NCBI GenBank assembly: GCA_033764315.1
Contig: JANRJA010000170.1
Coordinates: 25,885 to 89,884, forward strand
Direction: 5' to 3'
Length of the DNA stretch: 64,000 nt
Origin: Oculatellaceae cyanobacterium bins.114
Lineage (GTDB): Bacteria > Cyanobacteriota > Cyanobacteriia > Elainellales > Elainellaceae
The stretch's first letter is position 1, and the number at the start of each line of letters is the position of its first letter. The notes under the pieces were generated by a model. That model ran no database searches and had not been told where the DNA came from. It was given only the letters and a program-made list of their open reading frames with translations. Shown here piece after piece: positions 47,735 through 52,040 of the stretch. The position numbers were made by a program, and so were the translations under genes.

Positions 47735-47767
47735 GATTTTAGATTTTAGATTTTAGATTTTGGATTG
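47735..47767. repeat. 7-bp short tandem repeat (GATTTTA, STRR type)
   Basis: GATTTTA x3, GATTTTG, GATTG. Confidence 0.75.
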
Positions 47768-47770
47768 AGC

Positions 47771-48000
47771 AGCGATTTTCTGTAGGGTGGGCATCGCCCA
47801 CCATGTCTCATGTTCATTAGCGATTTTCTGTAGTGGGCATCGCCCACCATGTCTCATGTTCATTAGCGATTTTCTGTAGGGTGGGCATCGCCCACCATGT
47901 CTCATGTTCATTAGCGATTTTCTGTAGGGTGGGCATCGCCCACCATGTCTCATGTTCATTAGCGATTTTCTGTAGGGTGGGCATCGCCCACCATGTCTCA
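47771..48000 (+). repeat. Tandem array of 48-bp units each carrying a GTAG REP hairpin
   Basis: Units start at 47771, 47819 (46 bp, GG deleted), 47865, 47913 and 47961 (40 bp, partial); core GTAG-GGTGGGC-ATC-GCCCACC. Confidence 0.92.
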
Positions 48001-48108
48001 AAAGCTTGTTCAATAGATATTGGTGGACGGTGCCTGCCTATCGAGAAGACGGATTTCTGCCTACGCGGGAATGAGAGGTCATGTTCTAATGTGTCTATAT
48101 GATGGATA

Positions 48109-48128
48109 GTGGGCAATGCCCACCCTAC
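48109..48128 (-). repeat. REP copy, inverted relative to the array
   Basis: GTGGGCAATGCCCACCCTAC, reverse complement GTAGGGTGGGCATTGCCCAC. Confidence 0.85.
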
Positions 48129-48230: not shown

Positions 48231-48354
48231 ATACCAACTTGATTTGAAAACAGTGCAAACGGTGAAAATGCGACCCCTCCCAACCTCCCCTTGCCAAGGG
48301 GAGGTGCCGTAGGCGGTGGGGTCAAGTGCAAGGGTCACTGTTTCAATTGGTATA
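48231..48354. mobile_element. MITE-like element with internal hairpin
   Basis: Imperfect IRs ATACCAA..TTGAAAACAGTG / CACTGTTTCAATTGGTAT. The core 48272-48343 recurs at 53951-54022. Confidence 0.65.
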
Positions 48355-48471
48355 ACAAACGAGGCCTCAGAAGTAACAAACGAGGCCTCAGAAGTAACAA
48401 ACGAGTCCCCAAAAGCAACAAACGAGTCCTCAGAAGTAACACATGAGGTCGCAGAAGTAACAAACGAGGTC
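48354..48471. repeat. 21-bp tandem repeat, about 5.6 copies
   Basis: Consensus AACAAACGAGGCCTCAGAAGT at 48354, 48375, 48396, 48417, 48438 and 48459. Confidence 0.9.
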
Positions 48472-48508
48472 TTATCTCCTATTCTCTACGTCCTACCACC
48501 TACTCTTC

Positions 48509-48795
48509 CTACTTTCCCAAAACCGCCTCTTGAATCTTCCGGCAAATCTCCGCTAACACCTTATTCTGCTCTGAGGGACTAAGGCTATCGAGCGGATGAG
48601 CCACATCATGAGCCGCTTGATACTCCACAATCTTGCTGGTTTCATAGAGGCAATGGCTCAATAACACCCACGCGATCGCCAACCCCTCTTGCTCCGCTGC
48701 CTTTAACAATGGGGGCAACTCATTTTCATGGATAAAGTCGGAGTTGAGGAAGTCAGGGCTGACCAAAAACACGGCTACCTTTGCCGATGCCAGAC
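48509..48795 (-). pseudogene. 5'-truncated TIR (TIR_2-like) domain gene
   Basis: AKVAVFLVSPDFLNSDFIHENELPPLL...YQAAHD..PL is the C-terminal part of a TIR domain. The N-terminal FISY strand is absent and the frame runs into a REP. Confidence 0.75.
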
Positions 48796-48804
48796 ATGAT
48801 GGAT

Positions 48805-48825
48805 GGTGGGCAATGCCCACCCTAC
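48805..48825 (-). repeat. REP copy directly upstream of the Y1 nuclease gene
   Basis: GGTGGGCAATGCCCACCCTAC. Confidence 0.85.
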
Positions 48826-48862: not shown

Positions 48863-49630
48863 GTGTCTCGTCAACCCCGTGAACTTAAGCCCGAATATGG
48901 CTATCACATCACGACTCGATGCAATAATCGCGAGTTTCGTTTAATTCGCGATGAGTGCCGTGAACTATTGCTGTATGCAATCAATAGATGTCAGGAGAAG
49001 TATGGCTTTAAGCTCTATGCTCTATGCATCATGAGCAACCATGTGCATTATCTGCTAGAGCCACAAAAACCCGATGACTTGCCTAAAATCATGCACTGGT
49101 TAAACTGGTTCACAGCCATGTGCTTTAACCGAACGCTCAATCGCACCGGGCACTTTTGGGAGAAACGGTATCACAGTACTGGGTTCCCAATGAGTGACAA
49201 ACGCCGAGCCTTGAATACACTGCGCTATATTCATGCCAACCCCAAAGCGGCGAATATGCAGCAAGGATTCTTCTATGATTACAGCAATTACGGTAGCTAT
49301 GACCGCTTGACAAATGATGGCATTACGCAATGGCATCCAGCGTTTTTGGCACTCGGCGCAACGCTAGAAATTTGTGCCGCCGCCTATCGCAAGTTTTGCA
49401 AGAAATATAAGCCGCAACCCAAACCTGAGAAAAAAAGTCACTGGGGCAGCAAGCTCTTAGCACAAATCAAGGCAAGAAGTCGGTTGAAGAAAAAGCCAAG
49501 CCCAGGGCAACAGTCGCTTTGGGAGGAGTGGAATGCTCCTGATGAGGAAATTCGCCAGGTGGCTAAGAAATTTGTGTTGGCAAACTGTTTTGATCCCAAG
49601 ATTGCTGGTTTGAAGTTTACGATTCCTTGA
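48863..49630 (+). CDS. HUH/Y1 tyrosine transposase-like nuclease (RAYT/TnpA-REP-like, IS200/IS605 superfamily)
   Basis: YHITTRCNN, MSNHVHYLL (HUH), GHFWEKRY, RYIHANP (catalytic Tyr), YSNY; GTG start at 48863; no tnpB. Confidence 0.9.
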   Translation: MSRQPRELKPEYGYHITTRCNNREFRLIRDECRELLLYAINRCQEKYGFKLYALCIMSNHVHYLLEPQKPDDLPKIMHWLNWFTAMCFNRTLNRTGHFWEKRYHSTGFPMSDKRRALNTLRYIHANPKAANMQQGFFYDYSNYGSYDRLTNDGITQWHPAFLALGATLEICAAAYRKFCKKYKPQPKPEKKSHWGSKLLAQIKARSRLKKKPSPGQQSLWEEWNAPDEEIRQVAKKFVLANCFDPKIAGLKFTIP

Positions 49631-49635
49631 TTGCC

Positions 49636-49668
49636 AGATCCCCGGTTGCTTGAAGCAACCGGGGAACT
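49636..49668. terminator. Hairpin between the convergent Y1 nuclease and NACHT-GUN4 genes
   Basis: AGATCCCCGGTTGCTT-G-AAGCAACCGGGGAACT. Confidence 0.6.
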
Positions 49669-49775
49669 AAAAAGCTGGGGTGCCAGGTAACAGATCTCTA
49701 AAAGGACGCAAAATCGTGTAGAAAGACTCTATTTACAAACTTTAAAAAAAGCTCAGGACTGTCTCGTGCTACAGT

Positions 49776-52040
49776 TTACAAGTCTGTGCGCGAGAAAAGA
49801 GAACCTGCCCACACCGTATCCCACCTGTAACCCATCGGTAATTCTCCAGTAGGAGATTTTTGAAGATGAAATTGCAGTTGGTCGGAGTCCACGTAGGCGG
49901 TTGCGGAGGTTTTCCATCCTACTTTAACGCAAAAGCGATCCCACTCCGCTCCTGTTGAGGTGGGGCTCCCACAATCCTGCCAAATCTTCTTTTGCACACT
50001 AAAGCCAAATTTGCCCTTGCTGTATCTGACCCAAAGTTGGTCGAGCGTTTTTAGATCGTCACAGGGAAAGTTTTCGAGATCAGAACGGCTAAACCCTTGC
50101 CCTTCATCTTTGCCAACCGTGGTGATCATCAACCGATAGGTTTCCTGGTCTGCCTCACGCCATCGCTGCACTTTCAATAGTTCTTCTAGGTTTTGATACT
50201 TTGAGTCTTGAGCAACCGTTTTGAGCGTTTGGAACAATGCCATCAGTTCAGGATTGACTTTCTCAGGGCGAGGATATTCTTTGAGACAGACCGCTGCCAG
50301 TTCTGCGGCTTCGCTACCCAATTCACACGCTTTGCGAATGACCTGATCGAGCAATTTGGGGCTGAGTTGTGCAGTGTAGAGCAAAACGGTTTCTCGCCAT
50401 ATGGCTCCATTCCAGTTTTGCAAGACGAGTTGAGCATTGGTTCTGATACCCTCTGCATCCTGGGGTTGTGCCAGTCGCATGGCGGCAAAAAAGCCCTGAA
50501 AACTAAGATGCGGAAACTCATATTCTCCAGGCTCACGCTCGACTAACAACTCACTGACTTCTACCATCTGCTTTAGCCAGCTTGCGGGTTCGACTTCCTC
50601 TCGTTGAAACACAGTCTGCTGGGTCAAAAATTTCACCAGTCCTTGATGTTGCACCTTGGCTCGATTGACTTTCGTCATTTCTAACGCCAAAGTTTGCAAA
50701 ATTCCCAGGCTTTGCTCATAGGGCAACACCATGCGAATCAAACGAGCACGAGGACGATCATCGAGCTGAAGTTTACAAATGCCGCGATAGAGATCAATCC
50801 GTTGTCGAGGCAGTTCGCGGGAGGGGTCAAACCGATGAAACGTCACCAGCATGTTAAGCAACAATGGGTTTTCAGCCATGTAACCCAATTCGTCTTGACG
50901 CTGCTTTAATTGGGTAATGAGTTGGTTTGAGCGGTCTTGAGCGACTCGTTTAGCATGGCGCAATTGCTTTTCGCTGCGACAACACTTTTCCTGACAGAGA
51001 TACCAGCGGCGAATAAATTGCTCTTGCTGAGTTGGGGTAAACTTGTTGACAAAAATCGGCACTGCCGGACGCTGAGCCGTGTAGTCCTTAAACCCTGCCG
51101 GACGGGATGTGACAATAAATATAGTTTCACTATATTCACGCATTTGGGCACTTAACCAGTGGCTTACCTGATGCCGCTTGTCTTCGGGCACTTCGTCAAA
51201 CCCATCAAACATGATCAGTGCTCTTCCACTGGCTAACAGCTTTTCTGCCCACTTCAGCGGTGGAGTCAGAGGTTGATTTCTAGACAGACTGGGGACATGA
51301 AACTCACTCATCAACTTGGGCAAGCTGGGGGGCTGAGGCTGGGTCAGTGAGTCAGACCAATCACGCAATCGCAGCAACACAGGAACCAGTTTGGGGGCAC
51401 GATATCGCCGTTGTTTGCGTTGACCATAAATCAGAGCAATGTGTCGCAACAAGGTGGTTTTGCCCATGCCGCCTTTTGCCTGAATACTCATTTGACGAAA
51501 CTTGCGATCGCGCTTTGAGCGGGCTAATACATTCCAAATGCTGAGGTTTTCAGAGTATAAGACCGCATCACGCTGTGACCAAACTTTTTGAGGTTTATTG
51601 CTCTGAGTGAATGCATCACTTGCCAAGATGCCTTGCAACTCTAGCGGCACAAACACGTCTTCTAATAAGGGAATTGCCGTGCGATCGGGATTGAAGCCCT
51701 CCGAGGTAAACTCTTCACACAGCCTCGCCTGTTGTTTGAGATAGTGCCCCTCAAAGTCGGAGCGCAGTGTAGACCAACTCTCTAATAGGGATTGCTCTAC
51801 AGTGGCGATCGCCCAATCTATTACCTGATCAATCTTGGGTGCAATCCTTTTGCCAACTTTGATGGCAATCCACATGCCAGCGGCTCCTGCAAAATACCAG
51901 GCAGCTTCCGTCCACTGGTTATCCCTAGCTTTGGTGATGCCGACAAAGCTTAGTGCCCCTGGAATGCCAAAGGTGATCAGTTTGTTATCAAGTAACTCAA
52001 AAACCTTTTCGATCGAGGTGGGCGAGTAGGGATCTGACAT
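49776..52040 (-). CDS. NACHT NTPase with C-terminal GUN4-like domain
   Basis: AKGGMGKTT (Walker A), FDGFDE (Walker B), VTSRP, NPLLL, EFPHLSFQ; then WREADQET, FPCDDL.TLDQLW..YS.GKFGFSVQK.IW, GELP (GUN4-like). Confidence 0.9.
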   Translation of the reverse strand: MSDPYSPTSIEKVFELLDNKLITFGIPGALSFVGITKARDNQWTEAAWYFAGAAGMWIAIKVGKRIAPKIDQVIDWAIATVEQSLLESWSTLRSDFEGHYLKQQARLCEEFTSEGFNPDRTAIPLLEDVFVPLELQGILASDAFTQSNKPQKVWSQRDAVLYSENLSIWNVLARSKRDRKFRQMSIQAKGGMGKTTLLRHIALIYGQRKQRRYRAPKLVPVLLRLRDWSDSLTQPQPPSLPKLMSEFHVPSLSRNQPLTPPLKWAEKLLASGRALIMFDGFDEVPEDKRHQVSHWLSAQMREYSETIFIVTSRPAGFKDYTAQRPAVPIFVNKFTPTQQEQFIRRWYLCQEKCCRSEKQLRHAKRVAQDRSNQLITQLKQRQDELGYMAENPLLLNMLVTFHRFDPSRELPRQRIDLYRGICKLQLDDRPRARLIRMVLPYEQSLGILQTLALEMTKVNRAKVQHQGLVKFLTQQTVFQREEVEPASWLKQMVEVSELLVEREPGEYEFPHLSFQGFFAAMRLAQPQDAEGIRTNAQLVLQNWNGAIWRETVLLYTAQLSPKLLDQVIRKACELGSEAAELAAVCLKEYPRPEKVNPELMALFQTLKTVAQDSKYQNLEELLKVQRWREADQETYRLMITTVGKDEGQGFSRSDLENFPCDDLKTLDQLWVRYSKGKFGFSVQKKIWQDCGSPTSTGAEWDRFCVKVGWKTSATAYVDSDQLQFHLQKSPTGELPMGYRWDTVWAGSLFSRTDL

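Follow-up and report, generated by a model that had tools for sequence, protein, structure and literature searches.

A RAYT-like Y1 nuclease facing a rewritten GUN4 gene end: a candidate reverse-transcriptase-free diversifier in cyanobacteria

To our knowledge, few targeted diversifiers have been described in bacteria. Those covered in the preprint of Laurenceau et al. (bioRxiv, 10.1101/2020.03.09.984088), namely recombination, inversion, diversity-generating retroelements (DGRs) and integrons, copy or rearrange existing sequence. The preprint reports tnpA-REP genes facing procA in marine picocyanobacteria, proposes that they act in diversification and calls the association unique to that group; PMC10783134 merely cites it. 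For GUN4, a role as sensor within conflict or DGR proteins has been discussed, with no Y1 module mentioned in the accessible text (PMC7159879, PMC7517822). In cyanobactin clusters a transposase is placed between genes E and F, with neither a role nor a link to core hypervariability given in the parts available (PMC6162287, PMC4663559), and 19 different cores as well as frameshifted precursors were reported from one bloom (PMC3428304). Here we analyzed a 64,000-nt stretch of the genome of Oculatellaceae cyanobacterium bins.114 (contig JANRJA010000170.1, positions 25,885 to 89,884; hereafter the window), in which a Y1/HUH nuclease gene faces a gene ending in a GUN4 domain. A literature search returned no paper on such a Y1-GUN4 module, most subscription journals lying outside its coverage.

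The two genes are convergent, with a gap of 145 nt (49631-49775) between their stops, exactly as the first-pass annotation of this DNA had it. That annotation also proposed that nuclease and GUN4 gene form a two-component system, an idea which passes the genomic tests of linkage, spacer and hypervariability. We consider it likely, on comparative sequence evidence, that the Y1 gene belongs to a domesticated Y1/HUH clade which triggers the rewriting of a segment in the facing gene; the module would consist of the enzyme, a cis element and the convergent target gene, with no reverse transcriptase (RT). To assess linkage, Y1 loci were taken from the best 80 of 362 genome matches and the best 80 of 228 metagenome matches, a few records being common to both sets; 5 genome and 24 metagenome loci had too little downstream DNA. 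Among the evaluable loci the Y1 relative faced a GUN4 3' end in 74/75 from genomes and 52/56 from metagenomes, so the contexts are not random, as the annotation had allowed they might be. An ordinary RAYT family from the same genomes (29% identical, with long flanking hairpins) served as control and faced GUN4 in 4/30 loci, three found by tblastn and one by eye. Thirty-four facing proteins, of 68 extracted, were scanned for a second domain (E<=1e-8), which was caspase in 13, NACHT in 9, TIR in 6, kinase in 2 and absent in 4; since these N-terminal domains differ, the linkage is to the GUN4 3' end. At a plasmid locus, a MoxR-linked GUN4 gene faces this Y1. The GUN4 target motif was detected in 99/251 cyanobacterial genomes (control, 0), and 48 of the 50 genomes holding the Y1 family also held the motif, family presence meaning an intact or fragmentary copy at >=55% identity and E<=1e-20, with genome lists transferred by hand. 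A search of 160 loci for a further conserved gene, for instance an RT or a polymerase, found none.

The segment in question, bounded by the cis element on one side and by the target-gene codons for G-[HE]-[LF]-P on the other, has a median length of 54 nt and occurs in all three frames. The annotation had called this part of GUN4 variable, and between near-identical loci it is indeed replaced whole, as seen in five groups in all. Loci L095 and L096, for example, have a single mismatch in ~3,970 bases of surrounding sequence but disagree along the whole segment, while L032, L095, L096 and L119, ~99% or more identical around the segment, carry four unrelated ones; where two loci have the same segment, their flanks are identical or nearly so. 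Over 19 sister pairs the sequence shared between segments equals that of run-shuffled controls (8.0 vs 7.8 +/- 0.3), and a search for donors within this genome gave chance-level results for 4 of the 5 segments tested. On the Y1 strand, segment composition is C 0.435, A 0.33, T 0.135 and G 0.10 (181 segments). In 109 segments the C/A bias was equally strong at each of the three codon positions and at fourfold sites; being independent of codon position, it arises at the DNA level. Avoidance of stop codons was considered as its source and ruled out, the stops expected being 55% vs 57%. In-frame stops occur in 11/195 segments vs ~55% expected, a count made with a parser that favors open frames, and their rarity indicates that function is selected.

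The segment takes the place of the loop L[ST]NQLRGVR, which is nearly invariant in canonical GUN4 (19 genes parsed of 20 fetched), and thereby of Arg214 and Arg217, placed by the numbering of PMC1084334 and the canonical loop. Both residues lie in the porphyrin site and Arg214 is needed for porphyrin binding (PMC1084334). At the right boundary the His codon is CAC in 97/101 genes, against CAT in 15/19 canonical ones, a weak signal given that other columns reach 0.92. On the other side, a tail supplies every frame with an ending for the protein and a stop codon, the stops being at 49776-49778 (used here), 49769-49771 and 49753-49755. A single-sequence fold of the GUN4 domain reached a pLDDT of only 32. 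At one locus (L062) the flanks are intact and the segment between them reads as N throughout, perhaps an assembly gap arising from within-population variation.

Comparison of homologous loci thus shows linkage, fixed geometry, wholesale bounded replacement, a DNA-level bias and selection for open frames. From the near-constant tail-to-tail pairing with rewritten gene ends, the Y1 clade is probably the engine of an uncharacterised route to protein diversity.

Conservation of the spacer, which the annotation had left as a question, applies to one part of it and not to another. An element running from GGTGCCAGGTA to GAGAAGA is kept at 122-123 nt in 65/67 loci where both ends could be located, whereas the hairpin, which is not supported as the recognition site, has a perfect stem of >=9 bp in only 7/70 homologous loci; the conserved cis part is instead 49679-49802. 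Folded as a consensus RNA (+ strand), the element formed no pairs, its Rfam matches were at chance level, and as a hidden open reading frame (ORF) its best frame was open in <=24/54. Of 11 periods tried, 10.5 bp gave the best phasing of its A/T content, which suggests that the element is perhaps a protein-bound double-stranded site. Within the three-frame tail, the TG of a putative extended -10 box is present in 135/195 sites, and a promoter scan of the window found no -35/-10 pair there.

The hairpin between the stops does fold, as the annotation had reported. It recurs at 19 places in this genome, where each of the 5 GUN4 variable ends has a copy beside it and the control RAYT has one on either side, and we read it as the repetitive extragenic palindrome (REP) of the control RAYT family, with a role in this lineage possible too. 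Members of that control family, with their hairpins, are found at or inside the element more often than chance suggests (L309, L310, L314, L334, L311, L338), one beside the motif and one directly upstream of a Y1-family member, as if targeting the Y1-GUN4 modules. GTAG REP-like repeats lie upstream of the Y1 gene (47782-48128 and 48806-48825), do so in 11/75 Y1-family loci, and flank yet another RAYT on contig C187 of this genome. The Y1 gene is therefore not flanked by cognate REP hairpins as in a REPtron, both repeat types flanking other RAYTs, and the earlier alternative that it simply serves the adjacent REPs loses much of its ground. The window also holds a 48-nt-period GTAG REP array (47739-48128) and a 21-nt tandem repeat (48333-48489), both with copies elsewhere in the genome.

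Turning to the enzyme, the annotation's description of an intact Y1 gene with NHVH, RYIHA, a basic C-terminus and no tnpB was borne out: the frame at 48863-49630 is open, the C-terminal extension is Lys-rich and there is no tnpB-sized ORF downstream. Homologues share its start position, and the catalytic residues are invariant in the family (53 homologues). The protein has the HUH motif, single catalytic Tyr and Y1 fold of the HUH/Y1 nucleases (PF01797), and the top Foldseek match of its predicted model is 4ER8 (TnpA-REP), E 6.5e-7. NHVH, W[EQ], Y[IV]HxNP, its length and the lack of typical REPs place it in TnpA-Y1 subclass 2.1 (RAYT group 1), an assignment made from motifs and length (~238 aa) against Table 1 of PMC6006769 and not from a profile. 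Compared with the helix-turn-helix/DnaA-like domain of subgroup 2.1.2, the C-terminus gave no Pfam match and an Atlas match to Bac_DnaA_C of only 0.80; the predicted model has low-confidence stretches and plain helices. Its invariant GQxxLW motif resembles the clamp-binding consensus QL[SD]LF quoted in PMC6006769 and may act likewise. Six comparisons with the window gene gave dN 0.06-0.10 with dS near saturation, indicating purifying selection (pair L005/L006 was left out as out of register). These values tell against a multicopy insertion sequence, another possibility raised at first pass, as does the second genomic copy (L298, G000:C134:39396-40159), which is 82% identical, frameshifted near codon 199 and faces a NACHT-GUN4 gene with a segment of its own. 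The near-identical copies in unrelated contexts, hairpin ends and frequent tnpB of IS200/IS605 elements are accordingly not features of this gene. A search of viral contigs for Y1 relatives returned none. Directly upstream of the Y1 gene is a 103-codon TIR-like remnant (48509-48820, minus strand) with no Pfam match. HIP1 repeats, together with the relatives found, mark this DNA as cyanobacterial.

Table 1. Features of the Y1/GUN4 locus, in window positions.
Feature	Position	Strand	Basis or remark
Y1/HUH nuclease gene	48863(GTG)-49630	+	255 aa, open ORF; Pfam Y1_Tnp E 3e-18
HUH of Y1 protein	49040-49048	+	within NHVH 49037-49048
Predicted catalytic Tyr122 of Y1 protein	49226-49228	+	within RYIHA 49223-49237
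GQxxLW clamp-binding-like motif of Y1 protein	near 49505-49522	+	conserved
REP-type hairpin	49637-49668	.	folds, z -3.8 for spacer
GTGCCAGGTA motif, 5' edge of element	49679-49691	+	common to all target classes
Cis element, fixed length 122-123 nt	49679-49800	+	comparison of homologous loci
Three-frame tail	49753-49802	-	protein end and stop in each frame
Extended -10-like box TGnTACAGT, antisense, into variable segment	49767-49775	+	inferred only; overlapping stop codons confound
Target gene, NACHT NTPase with C-terminal GUN4 domain, 754 aa	49776-52040	-	Pfam
Hypervariable segment, 33 nt here	49803-49835	-	replaces residues ~209-221 of canonical GUN4
G-E-L-P codons (GHLP in canonical GUN4), fixed right boundary	49836-49847	-	Pro wobble base already varies

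The same clade faces other kinds of target. Some relatives (59-61% identity) sit in cyanobactin clusters, where the facing genes encode precursors of the anacyclamide/piricyclamide type (TIGR04446). When precursors were located in sets of 401 and 201 genomes with the follower motif as sole criterion (a chance match in G210 was left out), 25/27, from 14 genomes, faced a Y1 gene or just the C-terminal tip of one, for the most part 36 nt away, with a full-length Y1 at the precursor in six genomes. Here the 3' end of the Y1 gene contains the motif, and where units are duplicated they start 0-10 nt ahead of it. In G081 every core has a -35/-10 pair directed into it (10/12 matches, with TG), and such a pair was matched at 18/27 precursors. 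The base beside the follower Pro codon is fixed in 25/26 precursors while the residue varies, which gives a purine-GA junction like that of GUN4. One frameshifted precursor contains a long C/A-leaning insert that starts with a stutter of the flank, and at L418 a Y1 faces a LAELSEE-type precursor. In small-genome cyanobacteria (family f2), relatives at 45-50% identity, with the same motif, face Nif11 precursors and an unnamed variable-tailed family; from their context we infer that the Nif11-facing relatives are the preprint's own proteins. All these unrelated target classes hold their variable segment within ~100-160 nt of the motif, and the GUN4, cyanobactin and small-genome Y1 groups form one clade (SH-aLRT 100) with control RAYTs outside, in a quick tree of 63 rows with a midpoint root only.

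Several further relatives were seen. The unnamed family (L278, L284, L277; G180, G097) has ~320-380 aa, many copies facing the Y1 clade and no Pfam or NCBIfam match; after R[DN][VI]RVHD its members have hypervariable tails in which Cys is often present, and our impression is of an outer-membrane barrel. A cyanobactin-side Y1 with the motif inside its gene (L291, G125:C3:126300-132300) faces only a 45-codon ORF. Divergent metagenomic clade members (P0005, P0006, P0010, P0011) are 48-54% identical, most with Q-x-x-[LI]F-like tail stretches, and had no match among 241 phylum genomes.

How the nuclease might act can be sketched, although we hold the nick-and-extend detail tentatively, at somewhat below even confidence. 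As described in PMC3333891, cutting by an HUH enzyme yields a 3'-OH and a 5'-phosphotyrosine, and TnpA-REP cleaves well away from where it binds and carries out strand exchange. The Y1 would recognise the element at its GTGCCAGGTA end and nick the Y1-sense strand near the purine-GA junction, ~49802, at a time when a fork or antisense transcription makes that strand single-stranded. The 3'-OH would be left on the element side and serve as primer, the extended strand being the C/A-rich one. A polymerase would then add C/A-rich DNA, for the most part without a template but with one or other flank copied now and then by stuttering; the old segment would be lost and the strand closed again at the codons for G-[HE]-[LF]-P. 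Whatever the segment length, the three-frame tail would rescue it, and the outcome would be NACHT, caspase, TIR and kinase sensors that carry a repertoire of different ligand-binding loops. With similar reserve, we entertain the broader possibility that a single domesticated HUH clade serves cyanobacteria as an all-purpose generator of diversity without a template, comparable to N-nucleotide addition in antibody genes and separately recruited to immune-type GUN4 sensors and to cyanobactin and prochlorosin-type cores.

A number of results weigh against a Y1-triggered rewriting. No Y1 family was detected at E<=1e-20 in 51/99 motif-bearing genomes, and at 91 sites chosen by motif the family was adjacent in 35, another or faint Y1 was present in 6, no Y1 lay within 1.5 kb in 48 and the DNA was too short in 2. 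Segment C+A is 0.77 in enzyme-free and 0.80 in intact-enzyme genomes (p 0.2). The 23 in-frame cyanobactin cores and the small-genome targets have no C/A bias, so the writing chemistry may not be uniform. The element has no conserved hairpin, the usual Y1 binding site, and none of the 160 loci has a linked polymerase gene. A search for a same-species allele of this locus found none, P0002 having no other member in its cluster. The authors of the preprint, in an added note, see no strong evidence for or against causation. Broken Y1-family copies are common, and the enzyme-free genomes fit frequent loss of a mutator, with a host mechanism fitting equally; targets without their own enzyme would be served in trans or frozen. 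Two TIR-like-GUN4 genes of this genome (L296, G000:C15 ~31000; L297, C209 ~35270) lack a neighboring Y1 yet carry a variable segment, the hairpin and the 3' portion of the element, and are candidate targets in trans.

The alternative that survives best, which we nevertheless regard as unlikely, is that a host pathway writes the segment, by repair at a promoter- or G-quadruplex-induced lesion or by an RT in trans, while the Y1 only duplicates and moves the element-plus-gene unit, which would explain the linkage. The equal bias of segments in enzyme-free genomes speaks for it, as do duplicated peptide units that begin at the GTGCCAGG motif, as a mobilisation end would. Moreover, this genome has two DGR-type and two group II intron-type RTs (Pfam-detected, with types assigned by context), and the RT relative AbiA shows that DNA made without a template can consist almost purely of A and C (PMC11077055). 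Such a pathway is harder to reconcile with unrelated target classes that all keep their variable segment ~100-160 nt from the motif, with the lack of an RT or third gene linked in 160 loci, or with segments for which neither a DGR template nor length conservation was seen. Two DGR-like cassettes (L272, L273; G000:C102 and C236), read from context, contain an RT, an Avd-like gene and FGE-sulfatase-like targets.

We think it quite improbable that the Y1 alone acts as a recombinase, cross-joining unequal cuts in two chromosome copies or ligating short fragments, so that segments would be shuffled and not synthesised. Strand exchange is known for E. coli TnpA-REP (PMC3333891), internal repeats of >=8 nt occur in 34/181 segments vs 10.6 expected, and some segments contain direct copies of either flank, although flank copies of >=8 nt are overall not above shuffles and the cases rest on single long matches. 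Sister alleles nevertheless share no detectable ancestry, some flank copies hold errors (L009, L061) and distant lineages converge on one composition. Finally, that the Y1 is a passenger or an ordinary REP-servicing RAYT, with slippage and protein selection varying the segment, is largely refuted and very improbable: GTAG REPs upstream above the 1.4% background, the hairpin beside all five GUN4 variable ends of this genome and the many broken copies would suit it, but the C/A bias is independent of codon position, the segments are exchanged in their entirety and do not consist of simple repeats, and the GTAG REPs and hairpin each flank another RAYT.

Should the Y1 be the trigger, domesticated RAYT-like enzymes would gain a concrete host function, and the origin of hypervariable prochlorosin and cyanobactin cores could be tested with one catalytic mutant. 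A general HUH generator, if real, would account for hypervariability in two ribosomal peptide families, and the module, at ~1 kb, would be a compact tool for generating peptide libraries in vivo.

Among known systems, the target domain is like canonical GUN4 (PDB 1Y6I; PMC1084334) up to GHLP, after which the L[ST]NQLRGVR loop is replaced. The E <- Y1 / F arrangement of cyanobactin clusters recurs here with the Y1 clade. REPtrons and TnpA-REP (E. coli 4ER8; PMC3333891; PMC6006769 subclass 2.1) share with our enzyme the fold, the NHVH / WE / YIHxNP motifs, low copy number and domestication; unlike them, it lacks cognate flanking REPs, is fixed to a protein-coding 3' end and scores 68 in NCBIfam, below the cut-off of 80. 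Cyanobacterial DGRs (PMC7517822; PMC7159879) likewise vary the C-terminal ligand-binding domain of multidomain kinase, caspase and vWA-MoxR proteins and have remote targets. In contrast to DGRs, the module has no linked RT, Avd or template repeat, its changes are neither adenine-specific nor length-preserving, all four bases vary, and length and frame change. The closest likeness is to tnpA-REP/procA, with which it has in common convergence, conserved spacing, C-terminal enzyme fragments in arrays and variation confined to the facing gene end. The target here, however, is not a lanthipeptide precursor but a NACHT-GUN4 sensor with an internal bounded segment, a C/A bias and a three-frame tail, and in contrast to the known diversifiers that segment is replaced by sequence without a detectable donor.

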